Source: a virus. Taken from it: DNA of 64,000 nucleotides. Below are positions 21,427-54,346 of the stretch, one piece after another. The notes under the pieces are model-generated. The model had not been told where the DNA came from. It saw nothing but the letters and a program-made list of their open reading frames with translations, and did no database searches. The number at the start of each line of letters is the position of its first letter. Positions within the stretch are counted from its first letter, which is position 1. Made by a program: the position numbers and the translations under genes. The stretch lies in IMG/VR virus record IMGVR_UViG_3300017991_000052; one strand, 5' to 3'.

Positions 21427-21642
21427 ATGGCGAATGTACGTTTCTACAGACTAGGCGGAGATCCAGTTGACACAGAAATCACAGAGAAGATGACAGTTAG
21501 AGCAGCACTGAAAAAGAGTGGAATCAAGTACCAAGAAGGTGATGAAATCCGGGTACAGAACAGCAAAGTTGATTTAGACACAATGATCACTCCTGATCAG
21601 GCACAGTTTGTTACTGCGATCCCGAAAGTACGAGGAGGTTAA
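21427..21642 (+). CDS. Ubiquitin-like (beta-grasp) protein with C-terminal GG
   Basis: 71 aa, TVRAAL, ends IPKVRGG; first gene of E2/JAB/E1 cluster. Confidence 0.85.
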   Translation: MANVRFYRLGGDPVDTEITEKMTVRAALKKSGIKYQEGDEIRVQNSKVDLDTMITPDQAQFVTAIPKVRGG

Positions 21643-21648
21643 TGAGGG

Positions 21649-21700
21649 TAATATATTGGGGGGGGTGGAACCCTTATTAGCACACCCCCTTAATATATTA
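21649..21700 (+). terminator. Stem-loop between Ubl and E2 genes
   Basis: TAATATATT+G-run pairs with C-run+AATATATTA; may attenuate or stabilise the Ubl transcript. Confidence 0.5.
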
Positions 21701-21716
21701 TAAAAAGGAGAAAAAT

Positions 21717-22337
21717 ATGGCAGTAAAGTTAAGTGAAGCAAAAGAACAAGAAAAATATGTTGAAATTTGTGCAATGAGGCATAAAGTTCAAGTTAAAAAT
21801 CTTAAAGAGAAATTAAAAAAAATTGAAAAAGAAACTGCAGATGCTAGTAAGCAATTAATGCTGTTTGTCCGCGCGGAATCTGATACTAGAGAACAACTTA
21901 ACGCGCTCGAGGAAGGCTTTGAAAAACATAAAAATAGATATCAAGAAGAATTTAAAGCTTTAAAAGCTTTAGAGAATTATGAACATATTGATATAACTGA
22001 AATACATGGAAAAGCAGCTCTAATTGGTTATACAGATGAAATTCAAATTGAACATGAAGGCGATATTTATAAAATTGGTAAATTTAGAGTTACAGTTCAA
22101 GATGCACAAATTTTAATTGAAAATATAACTAATAAGAGAAATGGATGTGATCATCCTCATGTTAGAGATGGTCGACCGTGTCTTGGGGATTTAGGCTCAA
22201 CTTTACCAAAATTAATGGGTAAGCATGAATACGCTTTAGTTTTTAATGTTGTTTATAAATACTTAACAAGTTATAATAAGCAAAGTCCTTATCAAAAAAT
22301 TGAAGCTTGGACAAAAAGCAGAAAGAAGGCAAAGTAA
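21717..22337 (+). CDS. Prokaryotic E2-like conjugating enzyme with N-terminal coiled coil
   Basis: HPHVRDGRPCLG matches the E2 HPN..G.ICL catalytic-Cys motif. Confidence 0.75.
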   Translation: MAVKLSEAKEQEKYVEICAMRHKVQVKNLKEKLKKIEKETADASKQLMLFVRAESDTREQLNALEEGFEKHKNRYQEEFKALKALENYEHIDITEIHGKAALIGYTDEIQIEHEGDIYKIGKFRVTVQDAQILIENITNKRNGCDHPHVRDGRPCLGDLGSTLPKLMGKHEYALVFNVVYKYLTSYNKQSPYQKIEAWTKSRKKAK

Positions 22338-22900
22338 TGTTACAAGTTATTTTTAAAGAAAAGGCTATTAAAAAAATTGAATATTTTACCCAATTGGCTC
22401 CAGGAGAAATTTCTGGATTAGGTAAAGTAGAAAAACAAGGTGATAAATTTATTATTGAAGATGTTTACTTACTTAAACAAACAAATTCTGCAGCTTATAC
22501 AGAATTAGATTCTGAAGCAATTAATGATTTTCTTATTGATATGATGAGTAAAGGAGAAGATCTTTCTAAGATAAAGTTATGGTGGCATACTCATGCTAAT
22601 TTTTCTGTTTTTTGGAGTGGGACAGACAAAGATACAATAGATAAATTTGCAAATGAATCTTATTTTATTTCTTTAGTAACAAACAAAGCTGGAGATTATA
22701 AAATTAGATTTGATTTTCACGCACCGGATAGACTGACATTTGATGATATTCCTCATGTAGTAGATTTTACAGATGATAATGATCTAAAAAGACAATGTGA
22801 AGAAGAATTTAATCAAAAAGTTAAAACTAGATTATATTGGGATGAACAGCCGCAATATGTTGAAAATAATGAACAAGAAATTGTGGAGCATGTAGTATAG
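22337..22900 (+). CDS. JAB/MPN metallo-isopeptidase
   Basis: GEISG; WWHTHANFSVFWSGTD (HxH..S..D). Confidence 0.85.
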   Translation: MLQVIFKEKAIKKIEYFTQLAPGEISGLGKVEKQGDKFIIEDVYLLKQTNSAAYTELDSEAINDFLIDMMSKGEDLSKIKLWWHTHANFSVFWSGTDKDTIDKFANESYFISLVTNKAGDYKIRFDFHAPDRLTFDDIPHVVDFTDDNDLKRQCEEEFNQKVKTRLYWDEQPQYVENNEQEIVEHVV

Positions 22901-22918
22901 CGGTAAAGGGGTTAAGCA

Positions 22919-23584
22919 ATGTCAGATGCACAAAGATTTTGGAGACAATTAGATATTGTCGATAGTGATAAATTAAATATCCCAATTACTATTATTGGAG
23001 CCGGCGCAATTGGATCATTTACTTGTTTAGCATTAGCTAAAATGGGATGTTCTAATATTACAGTATATGATATTGATAAAATTGAAGATTATAATCTACC
23101 AAATCAATTTTATAGAGAAAGTGATGTTGGTAAATTAAAAGTAAATGGGCTTTATGATCTTATAAAAGATTTTACTGGAGTTAAAATAAATATTAAAAAT
23201 GAAAAATATAAAAAACAAAATGTTGAAGGAATAGTTATATCTGCAGTTGATAATATGGAAACAAGAAAAGATTTATGGAAAAAAGTTGAATATAATCCTC
23301 AAGTAAAATTATTTGTAGATGGACGCATGGGCGCAGAAGTCATGAGAATTTATACTGTAAAACCTCATGATATAGATGAAGTAAAGATATTTGAAGATAA
23401 TTTATATACCGATAAAGAAGCTGCAGAAGAAAAATGTACAGAAAAAGCAATTATATATAATGTAACTGTAATAGGAGGTTTAATTGCTTCTAATATTAAG
23501 AAATATGTAATGGATCAAAAATATATAAAAGAAATAATATTTGATTTAAAAAATCTATATTTATTAGCGAGTGAAACAAAATAA
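22919..23584 (+). CDS. ThiF/E1-like activating enzyme
   Basis: RFWRQ, IIGAGAIGS, YDID..NLPNQ, AVDN..R, DGRMG, candidate Cys in EKCTEK. Confidence 0.9.
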   Translation: MSDAQRFWRQLDIVDSDKLNIPITIIGAGAIGSFTCLALAKMGCSNITVYDIDKIEDYNLPNQFYRESDVGKLKVNGLYDLIKDFTGVKINIKNEKYKKQNVEGIVISAVDNMETRKDLWKKVEYNPQVKLFVDGRMGAEVMRIYTVKPHDIDEVKIFEDNLYTDKEAAEEKCTEKAIIYNVTVIGGLIASNIKKYVMDQKYIKEIIFDLKNLYLLASETK

Positions 23585-23918
23585 TGTTATGTCTAAAAAT
23601 AAAAAACTTGATAATGTATTACTTGAAATAGCGAAAAAAAAGGAGCTAATTGCAAAGATAAACACAATTAATTATAATAGTTTTGAGAAAGATGCTTCTA
23701 AAGTTATAGATATTCTTCCTCAATTGACTAATAATGATGATTTTAAAGTATTAAATGTGTTTAATGTTGATAAAAAAGTACAGTATAAAAAATATAGCTT
23801 ATATAAGAAATTTAATATATTTATGTATATTGAAGGATTTAAAAGGGCTTTAGAAATAATGGGTGAAACTTTTATTAGTGATGCAATAAAAGATGATTTA
23901 TATGAACAATCAATATGA
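23571..23918 (+). CDS. Hypothetical; C-terminal tag LYEQSI
   Basis: Between E1 and clpC, overlapping neighbours. Confidence 0.65.
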   Translation: MKQNNVMSKNKKLDNVLLEIAKKKELIAKINTINYNSFEKDASKVIDILPQLTNNDDFKVLNVFNVDKKVQYKKYSLYKKFNIFMYIEGFKRALEIMGETFISDAIKDDLYEQSI

Positions 23919-24184
23919 GTGATTATGTAATTGGGATTTTAAGTAATGAATTAGATAAATTAAAAACAATAGCATCACGACTTGAGGGCGAATTAACAGA
24001 ACATGAAGTATATGCTAATCAAACGAGGGATAGTTTAATATTAATAAGGCAAGCTATTAAAGAAATTGAAGATGAATTAAAAGGAGAATATATAGAACTT
24101 AACGAAGGAGTATCACCGATATCGTTACTTAAAATAAGTGAAATTATAAGAAAAGAAAATAATATATCGGAGGAAAGTTTATGA
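23915..24184 (+). CDS. Coiled-coil protein; C-terminal tag ISEESL
   Basis: ATGA overlap with clpC start. Confidence 0.7.
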   Translation: MSDYVIGILSNELDKLKTIASRLEGELTEHEVYANQTRDSLILIRQAIKEIEDELKGEYIELNEGVSPISLLKISEIIRKENNISEESL

Positions 24185-26712
24185 GTTTATGTCAAGAATG
24201 CGGTAGAAATGAAGCTCAATATACTGCAATTTTTAATGTTAATGGCCAAGATATTCAAAAGCCAGTATGTGAACAATGTTATAATAAACTTCAATTAAGT
24301 GTTGATGACGCCACAAAAGAAGTATATCATAAATTAAGCGAATCTACAAAATTAGTAATTTATTATGCTCGCAGACAAGCAAGAGAACGAAGACATAAAT
24401 TTGTTTTAAATGATCATTTAGTTTATGGTATAATTTTAGAGAATGGAACTGGATATTCGACATTAGAAAGTGCTGGAGCAAATGTTGACCAATTAAAAGG
24501 GCAAATTGATTGGGCTTTAAATTCAGTTACTGATCTAGTACCTAGAAATAGTGGAGAAGAGCCTCAATTATCAGATGAAATAAAAGGCACTTTAAAAAGA
24601 TCTCTTGAGATTATTAATAAAATAGAATTTCCAGAAATAGAACCTGAACACATATTATTATCTATTACAGAAGATAGAAATTCAGCAATATCTAAAAATT
24701 TAAAAAGAAATTTTAATATTGATACAATAAAACTTTTAAGAGAATTAGAATCTCAATTACCAGAGTCAGTAGATCTCGTTAAAAAATATAAAGAAAATGA
24801 TATTAAAAAATCTGCTTTAGAAAAATATAGTAGAGATTTAACTAAATTGGCTAAAATGGATAAACTAGATCCATGTATTGGTCGAGCAGATGAAATAGAA
24901 CGAGTTGTACATATACTATCAAGAAGAAGAAAAAATAATCCAGTGCTTGTAGGAGAAGCTGGAGTTGGTAAAACAGCTATTGTTGAAGGATTAGCAAGAA
25001 GAATTGTTGAAGCTGATGTACCAGCTTGTTTATTAACTAAAAGATTATTAGCTTTAGATTTAAATGCTATGTTAGCAGGAACTCGCTTTAGAGGTGAATT
25101 TGAAGAAAGAATTAAAAAAGTAATTGATGAAGTTAAAGCTAAAAGTGGAGAGATCATATTATTCATTGATGAATTACATAATTTAATTGGAGCTGGTGCT
25201 GGCGGCGGTCAAGGTATGGATGCTGCTAATATTTTAAAACCAGAACTTGCTCGCGGTGAATTACAATGTATTGGAGCAACAACTCATGATGAATATAGTA
25301 TGTATATTGAACATGATAAAGCTCTAGAAAGACGTTTTCAATTAGTTGAGGTTATTGAACCATCAGTTTCAGAAGCTAAACAAATATTACATGGAGTACA
25401 AGATCGTTATGCAAATTATCATCATGTTAAAATAAATAAAGATGCGATAGATGCTGCAGTTGATTTATCAGTTAAATATATTTCAAATAGATATTTACCC
25501 GATAAAGCAATTGATCTTATGGACGAAGCAGGAGCAAAAGTAAAATTAACAGCTCAAAAATTACCTAAAGAAATAATTGAATTAAAGAAAGAAATAATTA
25601 AAAGTAAAAGAGAAAAAAAAGATGTTACTAAACAAGAAGTTGAAGCTAAAAAGTTAATGGATGAATGGAGAGAAAAAAATAATAAATTATCTCTTATAGT
25701 TAATAAAAATGATATTGCTATGGTAGTAAGTAAATGGACAAAGATACCAGTAACAGATTTAATAAAAGAAGAAAAAATAAAATTATTGCATTTAGAAGAT
25801 AAATTACATGAAAAAGTTGTTGGTCAAGATCAAGCAATTAAATCTTTATGTAATGCTATAAGAAGAGCAAGAGTTGGGATTAAAGATCCCAAAAGACCAA
25901 TTGGTTCTTTCATATTTGCTGGTAAGACTGGTGTAGGTAAAACATTAATAGCTAGAACTCTTGCTGAATACTTATTTGGGTCACCAGAACACTTTATAAA
26001 GATCGATATGTCTGAATATATGGAGAAACATACAGTATCAAGATTAATTGGCGCTCCGCCTGGATATGTAGGTTATGATCAAGGTGGACAATTAGTTGAA
26101 CATGTAAGAAAACATCCTTATACAGTTATATTATTAGATGAAGTAGAAAAAGCTCATCCAGATATATTTAATGTTCTTTTACAAGTTATGGAAGATGGTG
26201 TATTAACAGATGGAAGGGCAAGAAAAGCAGATTGTAGAAATGCTATTATAATTATGACTACAAATATTAGTGCAACTCAAAGAGATTATCATATTGGATT
26301 TAATAGTACAAACATTGAAACAGAAGAAGAATATGAGAAATTAAAATCTACTCAAGAAAAGGCTTTAAAAAATCATTTTAAACCTGAATTTTTAAATCGT
26401 GTAGATGATATTATTGTATTTCATAACCTTAATAAAACTCATATGACTTATATAGTTGATTTAATGATCAAAGAATTGGCAGAAAGAATGAAAGAACAAG
26501 AATTGAAATTACAAATTAATAAAGAAGTAAAAGAATTATTAGTAAAAGAAGGCTTTAATAAAGAATATGGAGCAAGATCTTTAAGAAGATATATAGTAAA
26601 GAAAATTGAAAATCCTTTGGCTGAAGAATTGTTAACTGATAAATTTAAGCCAAAAGATACAATTATTGTTAAAAAAGAAAAAGAAGATATTCTATTTGAT
26701 ATAGAAAAATAA
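24181..26712 (+). CDS. clpC: ClpC-type AAA+ unfoldase with N-terminal CxxC...CxxC finger
   Basis: Clp-N repeats, GEAGVGKT, FIDELH, GKTGVGKT, LLDEVEKAH, IGF loop. Confidence 0.92.
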   Translation: MSLCQECGRNEAQYTAIFNVNGQDIQKPVCEQCYNKLQLSVDDATKEVYHKLSESTKLVIYYARRQARERRHKFVLNDHLVYGIILENGTGYSTLESAGANVDQLKGQIDWALNSVTDLVPRNSGEEPQLSDEIKGTLKRSLEIINKIEFPEIEPEHILLSITEDRNSAISKNLKRNFNIDTIKLLRELESQLPESVDLVKKYKENDIKKSALEKYSRDLTKLAKMDKLDPCIGRADEIERVVHILSRRRKNNPVLVGEAGVGKTAIVEGLARRIVEADVPACLLTKRLLALDLNAMLAGTRFRGEFEERIKKVIDEVKAKSGEIILFIDELHNLIGAGAGGGQGMDAANILKPELARGELQCIGATTHDEYSMYIEHDKALERRFQLVEVIEPSVSEAKQILHGVQDRYANYHHVKINKDAIDAAVDLSVKYISNRYLPDKAIDLMDEAGAKVKLTAQKLPKEIIELKKEIIKSKREKKDVTKQEVEAKKLMDEWREKNNKLSLIVNKNDIAMVVSKWTKIPVTDLIKEEKIKLLHLEDKLHEKVVGQDQAIKSLCNAIRRARVGIKDPKRPIGSFIFAGKTGVGKTLIARTLAEYLFGSPEHFIKIDMSEYMEKHTVSRLIGAPPGYVGYDQGGQLVEHVRKHPYTVILLDEVEKAHPDIFNVLLQVMEDGVLTDGRARKADCRNAIIIMTTNISATQRDYHIGFNSTNIETEEEYEKLKSTQEKALKNHFKPEFLNRVDDIIVFHNLNKTHMTYIVDLMIKELAERMKEQELKLQINKEVKELLVKEGFNKEYGARSLRRYIVKKIENPLAEELLTDKFKPKDTIIVKKEKEDILFDIEK

Positions 26713-26845
26713 AATAATCATAGATGATTTAGCAATATCAATAAACCACAATAATGGTGACAAACATACCAATATTTTAATACCTTTCATTGCTAGTTTT
26801 ACTGATGTTTATAAAAAAGATAGAACTTATCATTTTGATGTCAAT

Positions 26846-26974
26846 ATGATCAATGGAGAAAATCACACTATTGGAGGAAGAAATAAACAGGATATTGAAG
26901 ATTCTCATAAATATTTAGTAAAAAGATTAAGAAAATATTATGAGTCTAAAATATTTTTTGAACAAACTTTATGA
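26846..26974 (+). CDS. Small ORF after clpC ending in tag variant FFEQTL (frame open from 26705; true start uncertain)
   Basis: ATGA overlap with 26971; ends SKIFFEQTL. Confidence 0.5.
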   Translation: MINGENHTIGGRNKQDIEDSHKYLVKRLRKYYESKIFFEQTL

Positions 26975-30130: not shown

Positions 30131-30376
30131 ATGCCTGTAATAGAAAAAGTTAAAAGAGTTATGAATATTTTAAATTATAAAGGCCATTCAGAACTTGAAT
30201 GGGATGCTAATAATGAAATTGAAATTAAAAATATGGAAAAGAAATTTGAAGAAATGATTGATAAAGGTTATACTGCATTTAAAGTAGATCCTAAAACAAA
30301 AGAATCTAAAAAAATCACAAAATTTGATCCATTAGCTGAAGAAATAACAATGACTCCGCCTGCACGAAAGGGGTAA
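30131..30376 (+). CDS. Small protein, possible second Ubl-like modifier (ends PPARKG)
   Basis: 81 aa, beta-rich, FDPLAEEITMTPPARKG; own promoter; ThiF gene downstream. Confidence 0.4.
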   Translation: MPVIEKVKRVMNILNYKGHSELEWDANNEIEIKNMEKKFEEMIDKGYTAFKVDPKTKESKKITKFDPLAEEITMTPPARKG

Positions 30377-32112: not shown

Positions 32113-32841
32113 ATGAAAAGATTTGATCAAAATCTTAAAACAAAGTTGATCGGCAATAAAGGACAACTTAAGCTAAATAAGGCCAAAGTTTGTTTAGTTG
32201 GTCTAGGCGGCACAGGTTGTCCTATTTTTGTCTATTTACATAATGCTGGTGTAGAAAATATTTGTTCAGTCGATGATGATAGGGTTGAAGAATCAAATTT
32301 AAATAGACAGTTTATATATAATGAAGATGATGTTGGGAATAAAAAAGTAGATGTTATTCTTGAAAAATATGGTCATAATATGAAATTCGATGGAAAATCT
32401 ATGAAAGGACAAATAAGCGTAGTTGAAAATAGTTTTCAAGGATGGTTAGAATTTTTAAAAAAACATGATGAAAATCCTCCAAAATTTGATTTAATAATAG
32501 AAGCAACTGATAACTTTGAGACAAAAAAAGCGGTGCAAGAATTTGCTTTCAAACAAAGTATTCCATGTTTAATATGTGGAGTTCATGGCTATCAAATAAA
32601 TATGTTTGCATGGCATCCTAAATATTCTAAAAATAGATATGCAGATTTAATTAATTGTGATGACAATATATCTGAAAAATCAGAAGGAACATTTCCTACA
32701 GCTACTGGAATACTTGGAACTCTTGTTGCAAATGAAGCCATAAAAATATTATTAGAATTACATGAGAAAGTAATTTATAATAGAATATGGTTTTATGATA
32801 TTCTTCATAATCAATTAAAAGATCTTAAAATTTCAGTTTAA
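32113..32841 (+). CDS. Second ThiF/MoeB (E1-like) enzyme
   Basis: VCLVGLGGTG, VDDDRVEESNLNRQ, EATDNF; CxxC pairs absent. Confidence 0.9.
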   Translation: MKRFDQNLKTKLIGNKGQLKLNKAKVCLVGLGGTGCPIFVYLHNAGVENICSVDDDRVEESNLNRQFIYNEDDVGNKKVDVILEKYGHNMKFDGKSMKGQISVVENSFQGWLEFLKKHDENPPKFDLIIEATDNFETKKAVQEFAFKQSIPCLICGVHGYQINMFAWHPKYSKNRYADLINCDDNISEKSEGTFPTATGILGTLVANEAIKILLELHEKVIYNRIWFYDILHNQLKDLKISV

Positions 32842-34975: not shown

Positions 34976-35374
34976 ATGAAACATTTTGAAACAAATAAAT
35001 TACATATAAAAAGTTGGTGTAACGAACCAGAAGAAGGGGCATTAAAACAAGCTGAGAATTTAGCTCAATTGCCATTTGCTTTTCATCATATTGCTTTAAT
35101 GCCTGACACCCATCAAGGATATGGTATGCCAATTGGTGGAGTATTAGCTACAGAAGGAGTAGTTGTTCCAAATGCTGTAGGGGTAGATATTTTTTGTTCA
35201 GTTAGTGCATTAAAAACAAACATAAAAGCATCAGATTTATCTGTGGAAAAATTAAAAGAAATAATGGGAGAAATAAGAAAGCAAGTTCCTTTTGGTGAAG
35301 GTAATTACCCAGAGTATGATAAAGAAATTGGAGAATATTTAGAAAATTTAGAAAAAGAGATGAATAATGAGTAA
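34976..35374 (+). CDS. rtcB: RtcB RNA ligase, N-terminal fragment
   Basis: ALMPDTHQGYGMPIGGV..VPNAVGVDIFC. Confidence 0.9.
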   Translation: MKHFETNKLHIKSWCNEPEEGALKQAENLAQLPFAFHHIALMPDTHQGYGMPIGGVLATEGVVVPNAVGVDIFCSVSALKTNIKASDLSVEKLKEIMGEIRKQVPFGEGNYPEYDKEIGEYLENLEKEMNNE

Positions 35375-36122
35375 ATATAAATTAAATAAAAGATGTATAA
35401 AATGTAATAAATTACTTTTAGATAAAAATAAAAGTGGCTTTTGTAATTCTCATAGAGATAGAACTGGATCAAATAATTCATTTTTCGGGAAACATCATTC
35501 AAAAGAAACAATTGATGGAATAAAGGCAAAGAATCGTAAAAAAAGTAAAGAAAATTGGAAAAAAAAAGAATATAGAGATAAAGTTATAAAAGGCACATCT
35601 AAACCAAGAAAAGAATCTTTTAAGAAAGAACAAAGCGATAGAATAAAATTGTGGTACAAAGATAATCCAAAACAAAAAGATATTCGTTCAATACATATGA
35701 AAAAGTCTTGGAAAAATGGATTAATTCCTAAAAGTAAACACACACAAATGAATAAAAGTAAAATACAAAATGAATTTTTTAATGACATTAAAGATATTTA
35801 TCCATTTGTTAGTGATAATACAACAATAAAATACGACAGTAAATGGTTATTCCCAGATATTTCTATTATTAAAGATGGAATTATTGTAGAGTTTTTAGGT
35901 GACTATTGGCATGCAAATCCAAATAAATATAAAGAAAATGATATTGTTCATCACGAACTAACAGCATTGGAAATTTGGAAAAATGATGAAAGAAGAAAAT
36001 CAACTTTTGAGAGACTTGGGTTTTTTGTTTATACTGTTTGGGAAAGTGATTATAAGAAAGACAAAAGGCATGTATTGAATACATTTGATTCAATTTTAAA
36101 TTGGGAAGGATGTTCTATATGA
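35367..36122 (+). mobile_element. Free-standing homing endonuclease (NUMOD3-like plus Vsr/DUF559-like nuclease) inserted in rtcB
   Basis: GSNNSFFGKHHSKET; FPD...VEFLGDYWH...D..R...LGF.VYTVWESD. Confidence 0.8.
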
Positions 36123-36967
36123 ATTATCAAAAAATGAAAGACTGGATTATGTCTGATGAATTTAAAGAATTATACAAAAAATTTAATCCAGAACTGAGAA
36201 AGTTTATTAGACATCAATTTAGTAGATTGCCTAGTGGTGGCGGAGGGAACCACTTTTCCGAGATACAAAAAGACAAAGAAGGGAATATTTGGGTTATGTT
36301 ACATTTTGGGAGTAGAAATCTAGGTCAACAATTCGGAAAATATTATAATAAATTAGCTAAAGACTTAAATAATAAGTGGTTTTCAAGTGTTCCAAAAGAG
36401 TATGACTTGGCTTTTTTACCAATAGATACTAAAGAAGCACAAGAATATCTCTCTGCCTTAGAAATATGTAAACAATATGCTAAGTATAATCACTTAATTG
36501 CTATGGATAAAATTAAAGAGATTTTTAAACAAAGAACAAATTGCTCTTTTTTAGAGTATTATTATGTCCCACACAATTATGCAAGTTGGGAAAATCATTA
36601 TGGTAAAGATGTTATTGTTCATCGAAAAGGAGCAACTTTAGCAAGAGAAGATACTATTGGGATTATTCCAGGAAGTCAAGGAACAGCAAGTTATATTGTA
36701 ATTGGTAAAGGTAATAAAGATAGTTTTAACTCTTGTTCTCATGGCGCAGGCAGAAAGATGGGTAGAAAAGAAGCACAAAGAACTTTAAGTTTAGAAGAAG
36801 AAAAAAAGAAGTTAGATGAAAGGGGAATTGTTCATTCTATTAGATATGAAAAAGATCTTGATGAAGCTTCTGGTGCGTATAAAGATATTGATATTGTTAT
36901 GAAAGAACAAGAAGATCTTGTAGATATTAAAGTAAAATTAGTACCGCTAGGAGTAATAAAAGGATGA
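36119..36967 (+). CDS. rtcB: RtcB RNA ligase, C-terminal fragment
   Basis: GGGNHFSEIQ, HFGSRNLG, HNYA, HRKGAT, IPGSQG, SCSHGAGR, DEASGAYK. Confidence 0.9.
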   Translation: MNYQKMKDWIMSDEFKELYKKFNPELRKFIRHQFSRLPSGGGGNHFSEIQKDKEGNIWVMLHFGSRNLGQQFGKYYNKLAKDLNNKWFSSVPKEYDLAFLPIDTKEAQEYLSALEICKQYAKYNHLIAMDKIKEIFKQRTNCSFLEYYYVPHNYASWENHYGKDVIVHRKGATLAREDTIGIIPGSQGTASYIVIGKGNKDSFNSCSHGAGRKMGRKEAQRTLSLEEEKKKLDERGIVHSIRYEKDLDEASGAYKDIDIVMKEQEDLVDIKVKLVPLGVIKG

Positions 36968-42321: not shown

Positions 42322-42828
42322 GTGCCAAGACAATTAAAAATAGATGAATTAAATATAGGCAAGCAAGTATTACAATTATATAATAATGGTATGAGTGCTA
42401 ATAAGATCGCGGAACAATTAAATGTAAATCCAATAAATGTAATTAATTTTATAGAGAAGACAGATGAGAATACACAGAAATTGGTAAAACGAGAGGATAA
42501 GATGGCTAAAGAGAATCTTATGCAGGCTCTTAATCTTCATGAGAAGATGATCGAGAAGATCGAGGATATGGAAGAGTTATTAACTCAGATGAAGGAAGCT
42601 GATGGTAAGGTAGTCGAGCGCAGATCTAAAGATTATATATCCGCATGGAATAGTATAATGAGTACGCTTCAATGGTGGACTGACAGAAAGATAAAGTTAT
42701 TAGAGACTATGGAGAATCAGATCTTTAGAAATGCTATCCTCGAGGCGATCAAGGGGGAGTCGCCCGAGGTGGCATCCAAGATAAGGTCTATAATAGAGCA
42801 GAAGAGAAAAGATCTTGGATTAATATGA
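42322..42828 (+). CDS. HTH plus helical protein (small-terminase-like architecture possible)
   Basis: LYNNGMSANKIAEQLNV HTH; helical remainder. Confidence 0.45.
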   Translation: MPRQLKIDELNIGKQVLQLYNNGMSANKIAEQLNVNPINVINFIEKTDENTQKLVKREDKMAKENLMQALNLHEKMIEKIEDMEELLTQMKEADGKVVERRSKDYISAWNSIMSTLQWWTDRKIKLLETMENQIFRNAILEAIKGESPEVASKIRSIIEQKRKDLGLI

Positions 42829-43647
42829 TATATAAAATAAAAGATGATGAGTATTATAGGGGGCTCAAAGAGACATGGGATTGGGAATATGATAGATTAT
42901 ACAATTGGGAAAGATTAAGAAGCTATGAGGTAAAGGATGAGAGTCTCTAAGATAAAGTCGTATGAAGGAAGAGTATTAATAAAGAAAGAAAAGATAATAG
43001 ATTGTTGGGGGTGCCCCCATATAGAACACGAAACGGGTAATAGATTTTATACATGTAAAATAACTGGTAAAGTGATACACAGATGGAAAGCTAAAGATGA
43101 TTGCAAAACATGGGGGTCAAATGAAATACATGTATTTATTCCTAAGACATGTCCTTTACCAAAAGAAATAGAAGATGAGAGTGTATGAAAATTGAACATG
43201 CAAACCCCCTAAGTATTTATGATGAGCTTAATCATTGGAAGCTTCAATATGAGATGACTGCTAAAGAAAGAAATGAATTAGAATTAAAAGTAGCCGCATT
43301 TCAAGATAGATATTATGAAGTATGTTATGAGTTAAGGAAATATGTAAGTGATTATAAATTTAAATATTGGGATGAAGCTTCTTATAGGGCATGGTTAAAT
43401 AGAGATATGGAAATAAATATAAATGAAGAAAGCATATGAATGAAACAATTATTATATCCCCAACAGAAGCTGAAGCATTAAAGAGTTATGCATCTTTTCG
43501 ATCTTCGGCATTAAGAGTTGGCAGAATAGAAAATGAAATAGGAAGTTTATATGGAGTAAAAGTGATAGTAAGCAGATATATTGGGGATCAAGTAGTGGAT
43601 ACTAAAATGCATGATTTTAATATAGTGAATGAAAGTATATAAGAGTA

Positions 43648-43676
43648 TTTATGAAGAATAAAAAATATGATATAAT
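43648..43676 (+). promoter_or_regulatory. Sigma70-like promoter, extended -10
   Basis: TTTATG-N17(TG)-TATAAT. Confidence 0.55.
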
Positions 43677-44338
43677 ATAACGATGCTAAGTCACGAAGAA
43701 GTGGTACTACGGTACTTTAATAAATTAGTATATAAATTAGATCATATTTTAAAAGATGGAGATAGTTCTACATATAAAACTGTAATGAGAGCTTTTATGA
43801 GATGCCATGGAGAATCATGGACTGAAACACAAGAATTCCTAAAAAATACAACTATCACAGATCAAAGTATATAAGGGGGAATAAATATGGGGAAGAAAAA
43901 AGATGTGTCAAAGCTATTTGCCAATGCTTTCACAAAGTATGATCAGATTCAAGGACAGCCTGCACATATACAAGCTAATATGCCAACAAAAATAATGGAA
44001 GAAAGTGAAGCTTTAATGAAAGCTCATCAAAGTCGTTTATATCCAGAAAAAGCAGGTAAAAGAGTAAGAGATGAAAAATTAGCGGCTGAAGAACAATTCA
44101 GACAATTCATAAGATCATTGACGATCGATGAAGTAGAGAACTTAAAACTATTAAGAAGTAAGCCAAGCTTAGTTGTCGATACAAATGCTTTACAGAAAGC
44201 AGGAGAATTAGGGGAAGATCTTGGGCTTGAAAGATTAGAAGCAAATAAGCTTATTAAGAGAGAATTAATTCCCGATGATAATCTTATAGAGTTCAGAATA
44301 ACTAATAAAGGCAGAGCGGTATTGGAGGAATTGAGATT

Positions 44339-44941
44339 ATGAGGAAATTGCCCCCTCAAAATAAGATAATTAGATTATTAAACTTTACTGAAGATCAGAA
44401 GAATAGAGTACGTAATGCTTTAAGTAAAGTACCACCGCAATTCGTAAAGAAAGCTTTTTCAAAAATAGTTTTAGATGGAGCTTTAGCTAAAGAACCAGGG
44501 AAGCACGAGAATTTTGGTAAATATAATATGGATACTAAAGTATTAAGAGTGAACCCCAAAGTATTCGATCAATCAGAGAAATTCACCGATGGAGTAAATT
44601 ATATGAGTAAGTTAGCTCATATGTTATTACATGAAATTGGGCATGCTTTAGATAATATTTATAATTTATCTAATTCTGAAGTATGGCATAGTTTAAGTGG
44701 ATGGTCGACGACTCCTTCTCATTCAAAAAGATATTTGAAGATCCCCCATGAAAAAGATAGAGATATGTTATGGTATTATAATCCAAAAAGCAAATTCGCA
44801 AGATGGTATGCAAAAAGATCCCCTCAAGATGATTGGGCAGAATCATTTGCATTTTATCTTGGGGGTCTGCTTGATAGAGTAGACAGAAGTAAGATCAAAT
44901 ATATAAAAGAAGTATTATCTCAAATAAATGATATTAGTTAG
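44339..44941 (+). CDS. Zincin HExxH metallopeptidase
   Basis: LLHEIGHALD...YA..SPQDDWAESFAFY. Confidence 0.75.
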   Translation: MRKLPPQNKIIRLLNFTEDQKNRVRNALSKVPPQFVKKAFSKIVLDGALAKEPGKHENFGKYNMDTKVLRVNPKVFDQSEKFTDGVNYMSKLAHMLLHEIGHALDNIYNLSNSEVWHSLSGWSTTPSHSKRYLKIPHEKDRDMLWYYNPKSKFARWYAKRSPQDDWAESFAFYLGGLLDRVDRSKIKYIKEVLSQINDIS

Positions 44942-45611
44942 AAAATGTAATGAATTAATTAAAGATGAGATAATAGAAGATGCAATGATAATGCTTGAAA
45001 AAGCAGAAGATTGTAAGATAAATAAAACTAAGTTAATATTTTTTGCGGGAAGTACGATACAAAAGAAATTAAAAGAAGAATGTCGACGACAAAATATGGC
45101 AATTGCGAGTTCTACAGCAGTAGTATATTATGATGAGAATGAGATATTTAGAGTTGCTGGAGTAAAGATAATAAAGGGGTATGAGGAATATTTAGGGCTT
45201 GATGAATTGTGTCTTGTAGATGAGTTATGTGTCAGCGGAATGGGTAATAAAGATATAAGACTAGCGAGGTATTATGTGGCCGATGAATCTCTTTAGATTT
45301 AGAGCTAATGAAGAAGAGGAAGAAGATATAGAGTTGTCAGAAGAAGAACTCGCGAGAATAGATGAGGATATGAATGATGCTCCAAGAGAACTTTATTATC
45401 GAGATGAGCAAGCACCGCAAGGTGGGACAGGAGAAGTAGAGTTGGATAATACATATCCAGATACTGCTGATAATTATAGAAGCGATTCAATAGAGATGTT
45501 AAATACGAAAGTAGACAGTCTAGAAATTTCAGTTGCTGAAATACATTGTCAATTAATGCGACTTGTAGAACTATTAGATAAATGCGGGATAGGAGTCCCC
45601 AATGAAAGTTT

Positions 45612-45860
45612 ATGAATAGTTGGGAAAAAGAATTTATGAAGGAGAGTCAAGGCAAAGGAATACTTCCCTGTCCTTTTTGTAAAAGTACAAGAGTAATAGA
45701 AGAGCCTTTGAATTGGATGATCTTAAGAAAACGACCGCATCAGTGTCAAGTAAGATGTTTAGATTGTAGAGCTCATGGACCAATTATGAAGGGATATCAA
45801 AGAGACGCGATATGGGCATGGAATAGTGCTTATCGAAGAATAGAGGATGAAAGTTTATAA
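45612..45860 (+). CDS. Lar-like (restriction alleviation) Zn-finger protein; tag IEDESL
   Basis: LPCPFCKS...VRCLDCRAHGP...AIWAWN. Confidence 0.7.
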   Translation: MNSWEKEFMKESQGKGILPCPFCKSTRVIEEPLNWMILRKRPHQCQVRCLDCRAHGPIMKGYQRDAIWAWNSAYRRIEDESL

Positions 45861-46565
45861 GGAGGTAAAGTAATGAAAGATAGAGTAGAAATAGTAAGAA
45901 ATAATGGGGTTGTATTTAATTCAGAGAATACTATAATAAGAATAAACGGGAGACAAGTAAATGGAGTAACACACTTCGCTATATATGATAGTTCTAATAG
46001 GGCAGATGCTGATAGGGGTCCGTACGCGGATCCCCATTTATTTATTACAGCGCGGTTAGGGGCTAATGATCGACCATTAAAACATTTCTTTAATCCAGAC
46101 AATATAGATTTTGATAACATAGTAATGTATGATCGCAATCATGTCGAGAATAGAAATATAGGGAGAGGGCAAGAAGATAATACATATATTGAATCAATAA
46201 GAGTCCATAAAAGAAATATAAGATTAGACTTAAAGATGAAAACGGAAGTTCAAGAAGAATTATTTGCGGAGAGTATATAATGGCATTTGCATATGGTAAT
46301 GGACAAATATTAGGGCATGCTATTGGGAACATTGTTGAAGGTGATGCTGTAGAGGTATCATTAGACGAGAATGGACTTATAAGGACTATTAGTATTGGAT
46401 CAGGAGGAGCTGGAGGTGGAGGATCTGGAGCTGGTGGTGCTGCATATGTAAGCATAGAAGAGTTAGAGAATAACGCAAAAGAAAGGGCAGAAAAATACTT
46501 TAATAATATGAATAAAAGTGTTATAATATCTGATGATATTAAAGATAAACAAGTGAAGGTGTTAG

Positions 46566-46739
46566 ATGAACCCCTTTAATTTTAAAAAGAGTTCATATGG
46601 ATATGAGTGGAAGATCATTACTCAGTACTTCAAATTCCCGAAGCGCAAAAAGAAGCGTAAGAAAAGAAAAGTGGTTCATAAGCCAGCTATAGTAAAGAAA
46701 TATAGTAAGCGATTTGAGATATTAGACGAAACAATATGA
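46566..46739 (+). CDS. Basic 57-aa protein (not in track); tag variant ILDETI
   Basis: MNPFNFK...KRFEILDETI; ATGA overlap with 46736. Confidence 0.65.
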   Translation: MNPFNFKKSSYGYEWKIITQYFKFPKRKKKRKKRKVVHKPAIVKKYSKRFEILDETI

Positions 46740-49254
46740 AGATACAGCTTGCAATTAGTTTATCTGATATATCAATGTATCTTTATTGGATATGTATAGG
46801 GCTTTATTGTTGGATGATATTTAAAGAGCGAAAGAATCGTAAAAAAGAAAGAGAATTTATTGCACAAATACAAAGGGATACTCAAAGGCGAATGGAAGAG
46901 TTTATAAAAGCAGAAAAAGAATTCCAAAGGAAATTAAAAGTAAAAACATTACAAGTTGAATATTATAAGAAAAAATGCAAACATGAAATAGTTAATGAAA
47001 GTTTATAATGGAGGGGTTTTTTACTGCTGAAAATATCAGCAATTTATTAAACATAAGTCTTTTATTGTGGATATTTATTTTAGCAGCAAAGTTAGGATAT
47101 ACTTTATATGAGGCTAGTAAAGAAGAACGCAATGAGAGAAATAGAATATTGGAAGCCCGAATTTTTGCATCAATGCATCCGAATGGGGAACTTCGTAAAT
47201 ATATACATGTCAAGAAGAAGGGAAAGAAAAGAAGAAAAAAGAAAATTAAGATCAATGTAAAGAAGTCGTTATACAAAGAAAAAGACGAAGTGGAGATAAT
47301 GAATGAATCTCTCTGAAGGAGCAGTAAATGTATTAATAATATTCTCTGGTACTATAAGCGCTGTTGTGATATGTGTGATAGCAATGTGGTTAGGAAGATG
47401 GTTAGCTGATAGAGAAGATCGACAATTTATGATGACTACTACATCGACTGCTATTGGGGATCTTCATAATGATCGAATAAGTAGGGAACAAATGGAAAGT
47501 GAAATGGTTCGAGCAAGGGAAGAGATGAGAAGGGCTCATGAAGAGCAAAGACAAATGATGCATGAAACGCGCAGACAAATGTATCTTTATAATGAATCGC
47601 TTCAATCACAACAAAGAGCAGCAATTAGTCCAAGGATTGCAGAGGCACAACAAATAAATAGAACTGCGTTATTGGAAGCGGTTGGAGCAAATATAAATAT
47701 AGATGATATGCGATCTGCATTAGAAAGTTTAGAAAGAAGTTTAAGTTTACCAGATATAATAGCATCAAAGCCATCTAAAAAAGAAATCGAGAAAAAGATA
47801 AATAAGTATGAGTTACAAGATGAGAGTATATGATATTAAAAAAGATACAATTATTAAAAAAAATATATAGGAAGAAGCTTAATAATCTTGATGAGAAAAA
47901 AGAATTGTCTTTACAAGATGCGAAAGAGATAATTGATATATTAGAAAATGATTTAAATGATCAAGTTAATGAAGAAGCAAAATATACAGAGCATGAAGTA
48001 ATGATGGAGAGTATATGACAAAATATACAAAAGAAGATTTGCCAAGAATAGCTTATGGTTCAAGAGAGATAACGATAACAAGGGCCGATTATGCTAATTT
48101 ATTACATACCATTGTTCAATTATTACATTTACATAAATTTAACGGTGAAGGTCAATTGGAAATAAAATATAGAGCAGATAATTTTTTAGATTCTGGTCTT
48201 ACTTTATTAAGTAAAACAAAACCAATTTATGAAAGTATATGATATATTGGAAGATTCCCCCACAAAAAGAAATAATGGTTAAATCAGATAAGATGCTTAT
48301 TCATTTAGAAGAAATAACATTAGATGTACCCAAAGATATTTTATTAAAGGTTGGTGATAGATATATAAAAGCTAAGCAATTAACGGAAGTGAGGGAAGTA
48401 AATGAATAATGATCCAATATTTGATTTAATTGAGACTGAGGTGGAAATACCTATAGATGATTATTTTAAGAAATGGAAAGAGTTACATTTAACTGATGTG
48501 GCTGAATGGTGCAACAATCAAAAAGATGATTTTACTGATGTATTATCATTCTTTACAGAACATTATCGTTTAGAGAGAATGATGGCATCATTAAAAGAAT
48601 TGGAGATCATAGATGAAAGTATTTAAAAGAATAGTTGAGCGTAAAATGACTGTATTACATTCTGATGTTGCAATGTTATTTTTGTTATTAAGATTATTTG
48701 AGGTATTTGATACACCTTATGATAAGTTGATATTTATAATACTTCTTATTTTCTTTTAATATGGCTATAGAAGTACGCTATGTGAATATTAAAAATTTAA
48801 ATGTAAGTAATGCTGCTTTTGTACGACAAGATAGTAATGGGAGAATGATACGTTTAGATAATGACCCCACTACTATTTATTTAGATCTATCATTATCATT
48901 AGAGACAAGAGATGATATTAATTGTATTGATCTTACAAAAAGAATACATGATATATTAAGAAATTATTTGAATAAAGAACAAATTGGGGGAATTGAAATT
49001 GAGGAAGAAAGTTTGTAGAACCTGTGTAATTTTCGGAGTTATAGTTATATTATTGTGGGTAGGATGTGGTAAGACTTCTAAGGAAGTTGGTATCGACACA
49101 CCAGATAGATTATTGGAAGATTTTCCAACTAAAGATATTGTATATGAGAGAATAACTGAAGATATTACAGAAGATAAAGATCAAAAAGAAAAAAAGGAAA
49201 AGCCAACTAAAGATGAAAAAGGAAAAGATAAGAAAAATAAATGAGAGTGATTAT

Positions 49255-49377
49255 ATGCCAGAATCTCCAATATCATCGCAATCGATGTTGAATATTGTGA
49301 GAGCAGTAAATACTCTCATAGATGAAAGAGATAAAAGAATAGTAGATTATTATGAAGTAGAAGATGAGTCATTATGA
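49255..49377 (+). CDS. 40-aa protein (not in track); tag VEDESL
   Basis: MPESPISSQ...DYYEVEDESL; ATGA overlap with 49374. Confidence 0.65.
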   Translation: MPESPISSQSMLNIVRAVNTLIDERDKRIVDYYEVEDESL

Positions 49378-49658
49378 ATAAAATAAGATTATTAAAAAGA
49401 TTAAGAGAAAAGACGGGGCTCGGGTTAAAAGATGCTAAAGACATTATTGATGATCTATTTGAGTGTGTTGATGGGGATAATAAATTAACCCCTCAATATG
49501 TTGATATGATTGTGGAAAATCATAATCATCTTCAAGCATTAGCACGCGATATAAATGATGTTGAAAGACAATTAAAGAGATTAACATCAAAGATGAAGCT
49601 TCTTACATCACATATAAGAAACGGGAGATCATTAATAATAGAGAATGAAAGTATGTAA
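49374..49658 (+). CDS. Ribosomal L7/L12 C-terminal-like domain plus coiled coil; tag IENESM
   Basis: KIRLLKRLREKTGLGLKDAKDIID. Confidence 0.7.
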   Translation: MNKIRLLKRLREKTGLGLKDAKDIIDDLFECVDGDNKLTPQYVDMIVENHNHLQALARDINDVERQLKRLTSKMKLLTSHIRNGRSLIIENESM

Positions 49659-52600: not shown

Positions 52601-52835
52601 ATAGATTTGAAGGTAAAAAATAGTGGTAATAGTTATAAATATGTAGGAAGAATGAAGGTAAATGAGGCTGATGTCATTACTTCCGACCGAAATCTTTCGG
52701 CTATAATAAGTGATACATTTTTAATGAATATGTATAAATTTAAGGAAGATATAGAAAACCAGGTATTTTATATAAAGAGTGATATGGTTTTCGAAAATAA
52801 ATTAAAAGAATACGGATTATTTATTGAAAGTATTT

Positions 52836-53797
52836 AGCCGAGGGAAAATTGAGACTCGACGGAGTTTCGTAGCTGTTGACGGGCAGCGATAAGGGTGTTA
52901 GCCAGACACTTGGGGAAAGTAAGTCATCTTGTGTTTTAAGCAAGAGATTTATTTTAGCGGAGTGAGAATATATGAGTTCTCGCGTGTAGGCAATACTTAA
53001 TTTTGACAATTTAATAACAACGGCTTGAGATCGCGGAGTGCAGACTCAATGTGATCAAATCCGCAGAACTGAAACTAATGTGGACAAGCTAGAGCCTCTA
53101 ACTAGGAAGAGGACAAAGTGTTTGGTAGTTTCGCTATAGAAAACTACCTCTCACTTAATGAGGTGCTTATCTACCATGTGTAGATAGAGCTTCAGACGAC
53201 TTTATTAGTGTGAAAGAATTTTTGCTAATTATAGATGCATTAATTCTTCAAATTAGATGAAGATGTCTGCAAAAGAGCTTAGGTTTCAATGAGCCCAGGT
53301 GCGATATAAAAGTTCAACTTATTGTCTTTATATAAAGTACAATTAGATTAACTGCTTAAATAGGGACGCCTAGCCTGTACTAATAATATCTTAATATGTT
53401 ATGGATTTAACCCTCCTGTCTGGGTAGCGAGGTTGGTAAGGGATCGGTCATAACATTTTGCGCTATCACGAAGTTTGACAATAACTAGTGACTGAACAAC
53501 TCGCTATGCAGGTGTAAGGTACATTTTGGACCATCGCCCTTGAGGTAACTCTTGGGAGAGAGATGGTTACCCAGGCCGATCCGGTGAGGGAAAAACAAAG
53601 TGGTTCCGTGGCCAATAGTAGCAATACTACGATTTTGACATTTGGATGATGTTGACAATTTAGATTACTACTGCAGACGGCCATCAAGTTGAAGGACCAT
53701 GTACTTGTACGTCTTGCTTGACCTTCGGATTCAATGGGGAGGAAGCTTTCTGTTGAAAAGGGGGGAATGGCGGTATGAGTATAATTCTTTCCTTTTT
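52836..53797 (+). ncRNA. Large (~900-950 nt) structured non-coding RNA candidate
   Basis: No credible ORF, raised GC, >12 nested hairpins including GNRA loops (see findings); boundaries approximate. Confidence 0.7.
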
Positions 53798-53893
53798 ATT
53801 GTCGAACTCGTACTTAAAATGAGTACAAACGTACTCAATATGAGAACATTGATATATAGGCCACCAGGAGAATATATTCTAGGAGGTTTTACC

Positions 53894-54346
53894 ATGATAA
53901 GGGATTTAGTTCCATTCAATAATGGAAGCTTATTTAATGAGTTCCAGAACGAATTCGCAAAAATGGAGAAACTGATGAATAATATATTCTCAGATTCTGG
54001 TTCGTTCTTAGGAGTAGGGAAAGCAACATTCCCAAAGTATAATCTTATCGAGACAGATAATGATTATGTAATTGAAGTTGCGGCAGCTGGGTTAGGTAAA
54101 GAAGATCTTGAAGTAAGAGTTGATGATAATAAGTTAGTTATTCGAGGCAAGAAAAAATCTAAATATGATAATGCAAAATATCATATTAGAGAGTTAGCAA
54201 GTCGATCATTTGAGAAGAGAATTAATCTTCCATCGATCATTGACAAAGACAAGATCAAAGCAAAATTTGAGGAAGGTATCTTAGAGATAAATCTTCCAAA
54301 GGCAGAGAAAAATGAAGGGTCAGTTAGGCAAGTAACAATTAAGTAA
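53894..54346 (+). CDS. Small heat-shock protein (Hsp20/alpha-crystallin)
   Basis: FPKYNLIET, AAAGLGKEDL, FEKRINLP, AKFEEGILEINLPK; ATG after AGGAGG. Confidence 0.92.
   Translation: MIRDLVPFNNGSLFNEFQNEFAKMEKLMNNIFSDSGSFLGVGKATFPKYNLIETDNDYVIEVAAAGLGKEDLEVRVDDNKLVIRGKKKSKYDNAKYHIRELASRSFEKRINLPSIIDKDKIKAKFEEGILEINLPKAEKNEGSVRQVTIK

Follow-up and report, generated by a model that had tools for sequence, protein, structure and literature searches.

Gene content of the locus

Here we report on a 64,000-nucleotide stretch of virus DNA (IMG/VR record IMGVR_UViG_3300017991_000052, hereafter the window) and on a locus within it, positions 21427–26974, in which genes for a ubiquitin-like protein (Ubl), an E2-like protein, a JAB/JAMM peptidase (JAB) and a ThiF-type E1 stand in a row and are followed by two small open reading frames (ORFs) and a ClpC gene. 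The first four genes (21427–23584) probably make up a self-contained phage-encoded ubiquitin-like conjugation cassette. All genes of the locus lie on the plus strand, and its features, given in window coordinates, are as follows.

21427–21642, plus strand: Ubl, 71 amino acids, ending IPKVRGG and then TAA
21648–21701, plus strand: terminator-like hairpin with an 18-bp stem, from RNA folding
21717–22337, plus strand: E2, 206 amino acids, with HPHVRDGRPCLG at residues 146–157
22337–22900 (alternative start 22307), plus strand: JAB/JAMM peptidase, from PADLOC and Pfam matches and conserved JAMM residues
22919–23584, plus strand: E1 of the ThiF/MoeB type, 221 amino acids, Pfam ThiF 8.4e-20
23571–23918, plus strand: small ORF s115, 115 amino acids from GTG or 109 from the ATG at 23589
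23915–24184, plus strand: small ORF s89, 89 amino acids, helical or coiled-coil-like
24181–26712, plus strand: ClpC, 843 amino acids, from Pfam architecture and phrog_4871
26846–26974, plus strand: ORF of 42 amino acids, ending FFEQTL

The seven parts listed as coding (Ubl, E2, JAB, E1, the pair of small ORFs, ClpC and the 42-amino-acid ORF) thus share one strand. The E2 and JAB genes overlap by 1 nucleotide, s115 and s89 as well as s89 and ClpC by a 4-nucleotide ATGA, and the 42-amino-acid ORF has an ATGA overlap with the next gene (155 amino acids, function not known), while JAB and E1 are spaced 18 nucleotides apart. An initial annotation, made from the sequence alone, had named the same set, a 71-residue Ubl ending VRGG, an E2, a JAB, a ThiF E1, two small ORFs and clpC, and each gene lies where it was placed. 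Its description of the stop and start codons as mostly overlapping is right from the E2 onward and wrong for Ubl, which is separated from the E2 gene by 74 nucleotides with the strong hairpin inside.

The E2 protein

The product of the gene at 21717 has a helical N-terminal extension of about 60 residues and then a UBC-fold domain (about residues 61–206), with H146-P147-H148 and the predicted catalytic Cys155 at the active site (HPHVRDGRPC, residues 146–155). It gave no match of note in Pfam, NCBIfam, PADLOC or PHROG, and a word-based homolog search and a tblastn search of 50,697 phage records returned the query alone or nothing. Its family was found by an exhaustive HMMER search with residues 85–206, which gathered 970 cluster representatives at E ≤ 1e-3 (141 at E ≤ 1e-10), proteins of 110–740 amino acids in which the domain is mostly C-terminal. 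The motif H-x-H-x(3-14)-C-x-G occurs in 148 of the 151 sequences listed, and the form HPH-x(4-6)-C-x-G is near-invariant in the family. A 65-sequence alignment of the family shows no variation at P147, C155 or G157, and conservation of at least 90% at H146, H148, Y186 and W198.

A profile of this alignment matched human UBE2L3/UbcH7 chains in the PDB (E 0.002, about 15% sequence identity), with the alignment running from helix 1 through the Y-x-G-x-F strand and placing HPH on the HPN of UbcH7 (HPNIDEKGQVC) and Cys155 on its catalytic Cys86. A literal HPN is found in one family member, and one member matches Pfam UQ_con at 1.6e-5; at E ≤ 0.01, none of the 65 aligned proteins matches Pfam Prok-E2_A to Prok-E2_E. 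An AF2 model of the E2 made with the 65-sequence alignment reached a predicted local distance difference test score (pLDDT) of 96.1 and a predicted template modeling score (pTM) of 0.88, and was used in place of a model of the whole protein from its single sequence, which at pLDDT 45.9 was unusable. When the model was compared with 48,161 chains by VIA-align, ranks 1–11 were all E2 enzymes (Z 7.3–6.7, 115–124 residues aligned, root-mean-square deviation 3.5–5.0 Å) and the remaining matches listed were E2, UEV or RWD proteins. Foldseek also gave E2s as its best matches (probability up to 0.99, E 0.04–0.07), and the best matches among viral models (BFVD) were all “uncharacterized” phage proteins, including a crAss-like protein of 373 amino acids (probability 0.96). 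The UBC fold from modeling and fold search, the profile alignment to UbcH7 and the invariant Cys155 bear out the initial assignment, and on this basis we identify the 21717 product as a real, divergent UBC-fold E2 with a classical active-site layout as predicted from sequence and model.

Cys-rich C-terminal tails are present in some family members (e.g., P0010, P0017 and P0023), and these could be zinc-binding, RING-like modules.

The Ubl tag and the hairpin after its gene

The Ubl gene is preceded by a strong GAGGAGG Shine-Dalgarno sequence and encodes the protein in its mature form, the C-terminal Gly-Gly being followed directly by the stop codon (KVRGG-stop). We aligned 31 family members from the cassette loci described below, and the resulting profile matched SAMP2 of Pyrococcus (5lda_B, E 4e-11) from one end to the other, covering 66 of 69 residues and bringing the GG termini into register; it also matched ThiS, MoaD, TtuB and SAMP1. 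Pfam ThiS is matched by 24 of these 31 members and Pfam SAMP2 by 7; G70 is invariant and G71 at least 90% conserved. The sequence evidence identifies the protein as a single SAMP2/ThiS-type beta-grasp modifier.

Termini vary among 87 Ubls of the family, of which 34 end in GG, 21 in GG plus one residue and 12 in GG plus two, and the closest relatives of the window's Ubl end VKGGN. Because tails of the latter two kinds are frequent, JAB probably serves throughout the family to process the tag as well as to deconjugate it. The proposal that the Ubl is encoded mature and that JAB acts as a deconjugase therefore suits the window, and needs widening to include trimming of the tag for the family as a whole.

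The hairpin at 21648–21701 folds at -27 kcal/mol (z-score -3.8; none of 200 shuffled sequences folded as well) and has no U-run after its stem. Two relatives carry a hairpin with a U-run, that is, a terminator, at the same position (L141, 3005–3075, minus strand, and L004, 7600–7725; z-scores -4.4 and -4.9), such that the position between Ubl and E2 is conserved in three diverged phages while the hairpin sequences are unrelated. The hairpin probably sets the Ubl transcript above the enzyme transcripts or terminates the upstream NrdG transcript, and its conserved position suggests that tag and enzymes are expressed differentially or belong to two transcription units.

The JAB peptidase and the E1

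JAB has 187 amino acids from the ATG at 22337, the start chosen by gene callers on identical contigs, or 197 from the TTG at 22307. Its matches to existing models are weak (PADLOC JAB 2.5e-4, Pfam Prok-JAB 0.089), and the zinc site E...HxH-x7-S-x2-D is present as HTH-x7-S-x2-D (WWHTHANFSVFWSGTD). The JAMM residues E34, H94, H96, S104 and D107 of the 197-residue numbering (E24, H84, H86, S94 and D97 in the 187-residue form) are 82–88% conserved in a 149-sequence alignment. From these residues we predict that JAB is a Ubl deconjugase and, in relatives, a precursor-processing enzyme as well.

The E1 consists of a single ThiF domain (residues 21–200, Pfam as listed above; phrog_15670 2.3e-26) and its family numbers >1085 clusters at E ≤ 1e-20; identity between phyla is about 50%, and nearly all of the 120 clusters listed have a length of 211–240 amino acids. 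Across 125 aligned sequences, G27, G29 and G32 of the GxGxxG loop together with R9, D51, K74, D111 and R116, which include the Arg finger and the Mg-binding Asp, are at least 88% conserved. Cys173 in the EKC-TEK motif, the candidate catalytic residue that had been picked out by eye in EKCTEK, is conserved in 82% of them. The E1 has neither a rhodanese, CYS or UFD domain nor zinc CxxC pairs, and a direct search for its relatives in IMG/VR found none.

The cassette as a module and its distribution

Cassette loci were gathered by a degenerate DNA pattern for HPH(V/I)x4PCLG(D/N), which yielded 5 loci in IMG/VR, at least 120 in metagenomes and 73 in species-representative genomes (L217–L289). Among 196 loci with the E2, family hidden Markov models found JAB in 140, E1 in 122 and Ubl in 87, many of the contigs ending early. 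The genes occur in two fixed orders, Ubl-E2-JAB-E1 and E2-JAB-E1-Ubl, and the nearest relatives of the window's phage keep the order NrdG-Ubl-E2-JAB-E1 at an E2 identity of 43–57%. The cassette is carried by phage-like contigs of 220 kb and 319 kb, and one further locus lies among PheS/PheT, GyrB and SecE, adjoining an AbiEii gene. The E2 motif is especially frequent in metagenome-assembled genomes (MAGs) of NC10/Methylomirabilota (often two contigs per MAG), and occurs also in Chloroflexi, Ignavibacteria and genomes resembling the candidate phyla radiation (CPR-like). Phages and bacteria thus share the cassette as a mobile unit of four genes, and it is not a purely viral invention. The statement that the virus owns the pathway is accordingly correct for this element, which is viral, and too narrow for a family that is common on NC10 and Chloroflexi MAG contigs.

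A JAB and an E1 of this family also lie among the replication genes of the crAss-like phage cr126_1 (L002, 1245–5612) and the Flavobacterium phage FpV4 (L001, 2518–5588), with E-values of 2e-11 and 4e-20 for JAB and 1e-44 and 3e-49 for E1, respectively. Upstream of the pair in cr126_1 are a 393-amino-acid protein with HSHI...SPCLG and a 308-amino-acid protein that is Ubl-like at its N-terminus and resembles L7/L12 in its C-terminal part. We rejected placing these phages in the same E2 family, since their candidate E2 and Ubl, both chosen by eye apart from the crAss-like BFVD match given above, miss a threshold of E 0.01.

No model in Pfam, NCBIfam (June 2026) or PADLOC 2.0 (2023 library) names the E2, and NCBIfam has none for the Ubl, E2 or JAB. 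A search of the full-text literature, with subscription journals outside its coverage, turned up no account of a Ubl-E1-E2-JAB cascade encoded by a phage.

The phage setting

The window has the appearance of a piece of a large phage genome, with about 28% G+C, genes almost all on one strand, 24 tRNA genes, and PHROG matches to an exonuclease, a CCA-adding enzyme, an M23-type lysis peptidase (endolysin-type), a sigma factor and Hsp20. An identical contig of 180,493 bp carries identical proteins, and no virion genes were seen within the 64-kb window. These observations support the cassette as a viral element. Immediately upstream of it are NrdD/NrdG, an HD protein and a HAD phosphatase; its place beside NrdD/NrdG, in the early or replication part of the genome, fits a role in host takeover or the replication phase rather than in virion assembly. 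In agreement with the initial annotation, the Pfam list of the identical contig holds no thiamine or molybdopterin genes within ±10 kb.

The window contains a second E1-like gene at 32113–32841, whose 242-amino-acid product is more canonically MoeB/ThiF-like (Pfam ThiF 5e-45) and has MoeB, ThiF and UbaA as its best NCBIfam matches, every one below cut-off. It lies directly upstream of the CCA-adding enzyme, with RtcB and RlaP nearby, and is a possible candidate E1 for tRNA modification or a sulfur relay. An 81-amino-acid ORF at 30131–30376 ends PPARKG, and no partner Ubl for this second E1-like gene was identified. The RtcB RNA ligase is spread over two ORFs (34976–35374 and 36101–36967) that are split by an ORF with NUMOD3 and restriction endonuclease motifs (35367–36122), an arrangement suggestive of an insertion of the homing-endonuclease, intron or intein type.

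Relation to known systems

In bacteria, the Ubl conjugation known so far serves hosts in fighting phages, in the Bil and CBASS (Cap2/Cap3) systems. The cassette resembles Bil in having separate genes for Ubl, E2, JAB and E1 and no E3, with an E2 presumed to choose the targets and a JAB that matures and deconjugates the tag. Bil itself comprises BilABCD of Types I and II and corresponds to operon class 6d of Iyer, Burroughs and Aravind 2006 (PMC1779556; PMC11601596). The E2s of that class have no His at the classical position and rely on one further downstream (PMC1779556), whereas the cassette E2 keeps the classical position, as HPH. The cassette further differs from Bil in its E1, a 221-residue single ThiF domain, and in its Ubl, a single SAMP2/ThiS-type beta-grasp, and the cassette as a whole is encoded by a phage and not in a defense island. 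None of the Bil/ISG15-like models of PADLOC 2.0 matches the Ubl or the E2; JAB and E1 give only partial CBASS-type matches, and none of the operon classes 6a–6e of Iyer et al. 2006 fits the cassette.

The CBASS homology detected by PADLOC is confined in the E1 to the nucleotide-binding part (E1-E2 model, 6e-12), the JAB match being that given above. In type II CBASS, Cap2 is an E2-E1 fusion that acts on a CD-NTase, with no Ubl, while the cassette has separate genes and a free Ubl, and no CD-NTase was found within ±10 kb of it. Its E1, its E2, the PADLOC results and the missing CD-NTase together speak against membership in either Bil or CBASS, the two systems to which the initial annotation had turned. 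The Bub (6E/DUF6527) E2s have a catalytic Ser and a DUF6527 partner (PMC11601596); the nucleophile of the cassette E2 is instead an invariant Cys, and Pfam scans of the window and of ±10 kb gave no DUF6527 match. A PRTRC cassette (TIGR03734–03742) was considered and rejected, as the E1 reached 41.4 bits with TIGR03736, whose cut-off is 144.75, and no other PRTRC model matched any cassette protein.

Other likenesses lie outside the described bacterial classes. A SAMP2-like Ubl, a minimal MoeB/ThiF-type E1 and a JAMM deconjugase are shared with archaeal SAMP2-UbaA-JAMM1 sampylation and with Thermus TtuB-TtuC, which differ in lacking an E2 and in doubling as sulfur relays, the cassette always having an E2 with the invariant Cys. 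With eukaryotic UBC E2s (UBE2L3/UbcH7) the cassette E2 has in common the fold, an HPN-like motif 7–9 residues before the Cys and the Y-x-G-x-F strand, differing in its HPH and in the low sequence identity noted above. The Ub-E1-E2-RING-Rpn11 operon of Caldiarchaeum and Asgard archaea (PMC5654768, PMC3082918) likewise unites a stand-alone E1, an E2, a JAB-type peptidase and a GG-ended tag; compared with it and with eukaryotic systems, the cassette has no RING E3, its E1 has no UFD and Cys domains, and its tag is ThiS-like in sequence.

A proposed conjugation mechanism

Based on these observations, we propose that the homodimer-type ThiF E1 would adenylate the C-terminal Gly71 of the pre-matured Ubl and may carry it as a thioester on Cys173, from which it would move to Cys155 of the E2. 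The E2 would then place the Ubl in isopeptide linkage on target lysines without a separate E3, and its variable N-terminal extension may select those targets. JAB would undo the conjugation and, in relatives with GG+1 or GG+2 tails, would also mature the Ubl, while the hairpin after the Ubl gene probably holds the tag in excess of the enzymes. Because the E2 is obligatory and its Cys invariant, a thioester relay with conjugation is favored over plain sulfur transfer, in support of the initial view that the presence of an E2 implies conjugation.

Several points weigh against this reading. The Ubls of the SAMP2, TtuB and Urm1 type double as sulfur carriers for tRNA thiolation, and this phage has many genes for tRNAs and tRNA repair as well as a second MoeB/ThiF-like E1. 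The cassette E1 is minimal at 221 amino acids, with no recognizable E2-docking domain or mobile Cys domain, and the VIA-align Z of about 7 for the E2 is middling when taken alone. No fused AAA+ or E3-like domain was seen, since ten family members with long N-terminal extensions carry no Pfam domain, and no E3, target or substrate-binding domain was identified for the cassette.

ClpC and the neighboring small ORFs

The 843-amino-acid protein encoded at 24181 has the Pfam domains Clp_N, AAA, AAA_lid_9, AAA_2 and ClpB_D2-small (phrog_4871, 1.7e-253), arranged as an N-terminal CxxC...CxxC zinc ribbon, a diverged Clp_N, D1, a short M-domain and D2. Residues 640–760 align best to ClpC of B. subtilis and S. 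aureus, with HIGFN on YVGFN; ClpB chains are 8 residues shorter across this region and have no ClpP-docking loop. The short M-domain and the alignment of the HIGFN loop to ClpC rule out ClpB. A (V/I)GF loop is what docks ClpP, and from its sequence we identify the 24181 product as a genuine ClpC with a predicted ClpP-docking loop. It resembles the ClpC of Bacillota, which acts with ClpP and is targeted by MecA and McsB-phosphoarginine, in its Clp_N, D1, short M-domain, D2 and V/I-G-F loop, and differs in its extra zinc ribbon, in its strongly diverged N-domain and in its surroundings, where no mecA, mcsA or mcsB lies nearby and the annotated ±10 kb show no ClpP; among 5.8 billion proteins, the first 230 residues had no close relative except itself.

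The small ORFs s115 (ending YEQSI) and s89 (ending SEESL) match no family in Pfam, NCBIfam or PHROG. A second phage (L141/L290/L291) keeps the order Ubl-E2-JAB-E1-s115-ClpC, with identities to the window of 47% for Ubl, 57% for E2, 48% for JAB, 69% for E1 and 66% for ClpC. Its ClpC has the zinc ribbon and its s115 homolog (40% identity) sits between E1 and ClpC, which it abuts, s89 being absent; the genes after ClpC are others than in the window. In L290 (1732–4260) ClpC is called as two ORFs about 100 nucleotides apart, one of 300 amino acids with Clp_N and one of 507 with the AAA modules, for which a frameshift, an assembly error or an insertion could be responsible.

Beyond these two phages the association is not seen. 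In 37 loci the sequence extends 5 kb or more beyond the E2 on its downstream side, and among these other Clp genes occur only in the window's duplicate and in one MAG, whose E2 and E1 are both broken and whose Clp, 36% identical, is located about 5 kb past E1. A search of all loci with the D1 and D2 AAA+ modules of ClpC found no further ClpC, nor any other AAA+ protein that these modules can detect, in the approximately 190 other cassette loci, the 220-kb and 319-kb phage-like contigs included, and unbiased clustering of cassette neighbors returned no recurrent unfoldase. Conversely, 0 of 80 viral ClpC loci in IMG/VR have the cassette within 8 kb. A tblastn search of isolated phages with ClpC (about 44% identity) returned mostly host-like ClpC/ClpB fragments filed as phage records and was uninformative on synteny. 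Adjacency in only two related, generally collinear phages is weak evidence for function, and we therefore treat ClpC as a clade-specific neighbor of the cassette, co-directional with it and translationally coupled to the two small ORFs.

The initial annotation had gone further and seen in the locus a miniature ubiquitin-proteasome system aimed at host or rival-phage proteins. Under that proposal the Ubl would mark such proteins, the zinc ribbon and Clp_N of ClpC would recognize the conjugates and feed them to host ClpP, and s115 and s89 would possibly serve as adaptors. The genes from E2 through ClpC do form a gap-free co-directional block with ATGA overlaps, and the gene order and the zinc-ribbon ClpC are kept in the second phage at 47–69% protein identity. 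ClpC has the IGF loop, its N-terminal 230 residues are diverged from all database ClpCs, as expected for a new specificity, and there are established precedents in Pup-Mpa, SAMP-proteasome, ubiquitin-Cdc48/26S and phosphoarginine-ClpC. Set against these are the missing ClpC in the rest of the family, the lack of conservation of s89 and the difference between the two phages in the genes beyond ClpC. A predicted complex of ClpC residues 1–200 with the Ubl, run without controls, scored 0.00 and weighs on neither side. The comparison with a proteasome system had drawn on adjacency alone, and the check on clpC synteny in homologous loci that went with it gave a mixed result, positive for one related phage in the nearest clade and negative for the rest of the family. 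We consider this scheme unlikely.

ClpC may be no more than one member of a viral chaperone set, as an Hsp20 gene is also present (53699–54346, phrog_432, 1e-24); the two suggest that the phage brings its own proteostasis set.

Another possible reason for a phage-owned ClpC lies in a C-terminal tail shared by many small ORFs. In the window, 33 of 147 ORFs end [EQ][ST][LIVM], typically (I/V)x(D/N)ES(L/I)-stop, where about 0.6 would be expected from the internal tripeptide frequency. The tailed ORFs span 4717–55381 and are densest at 42825–52837; s115, s89 and the 42-amino-acid ORF are three of them and flank clpC. With the tail removed, only one homologous pair remains among them (blastp, 1e-3). 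We rejected the idea that the tail is a by-product of a Shine-Dalgarno sequence combined with the ATGA overlap, as Ser comes from both codon boxes (AGT/AGC 24, TCN 7), Leu and Ile from nine codons, and 18 of the 33 tailed ORFs have no 4-nucleotide overlap (15 have ATGA). Codon choice is thus varied, which places the constraint on the tail at the protein level. The tail may be a degron or sorting signal, and might offer an alternative explanation for ClpC. A virus-owned pathway in which ClpC reads either the Ubl mark or the (D/N)ES(L/I)-COOH tail of the 33 small ORFs is a doubtful proposition.

Defense cargo and sulfur transfer

The cassette could also be defense cargo, either tagging the structural proteins of competing phages in a Bil-like manner for superinfection exclusion or having been acquired recently from a host. 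The frequency of the family on bacterial MAG contigs (NC10, Chloroflexi, Ignavibacteria) and the locus beside the AbiEii gene, among PheS/PheT, GyrB and SecE, are consistent with such an origin, and Bil Ubl conjugation is able to block phage assembly (PMC11601596). No PADLOC model for Bil or any other defense system matches the Ubl or the E2, however, and the phage cassettes occupy a conserved site by NrdG, in a replication and nucleotide module, at 43–57% E2 identity, which looks like long residence. The related JAB-E1 pair is likewise kept among the replication genes of crAss-like and FpV4-type phages. We regard a defensive role or recent acquisition as quite improbable.

The main rival as to mechanism is sulfur transfer, in which the E1 would thiocarboxylate the Ubl for phage tRNA thiolation in the manner of TtuB/TtuC, SAMP2/UbaA or Urm1/Uba4, with JAB and the E2-like protein as accessories. 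The closest solved relatives of the Ubl (SAMP2, ThiS, MoaD, TtuB) and the tRNA-related content of the window (24 tRNAs, CCA-adding enzyme, RtcB, RlaP and the second MoeB/ThiF-like gene) lend themselves to this view, as does the fact that the best NCBIfam matches of the cassette E1 are ThiF and MoeB models, albeit far under their cut-offs (66 vs 159 bits). We nevertheless hold it to be very improbable in light of the invariant-Cys E2, an obligate partner of Ubl and E1 in about 200 loci of any context where the sulfur relays known to us have no E2, and of the finding that no rhodanese, cysteine desulfurase, TtuA/NcsA, ThiG or MoaE is encoded within ±10 kb.

Implications

If the cassette is what we propose, a virus here owns a complete Ubl conjugation cascade, of a kind otherwise met with as a weapon against viruses, and one whose E2 active site (H-P-x...Cys) is nearer to that of eukaryotic E2s than to the described bacterial classes. 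The link to ClpC, if true, would provide a testable viral degradation-tag pathway, a viral counterpart of the ubiquitin-proteasome or Pup-Mpa pathways. The system is tractable, consisting of four small proteins, and the VR-GG end of the Ubl leaves a K-GG remnant after trypsin. The identity of the targets would reveal what the phage tags, be it host defenses, replication machinery or competitors. The cassette represents a large unnamed family of approximately 1,000 clusters at 50% identity, found in phages, NC10, Chloroflexi and CPR-like genomes, and this family bears on the origin of E2-dependent conjugation from sulfur relays of the ThiS/ThiF type.

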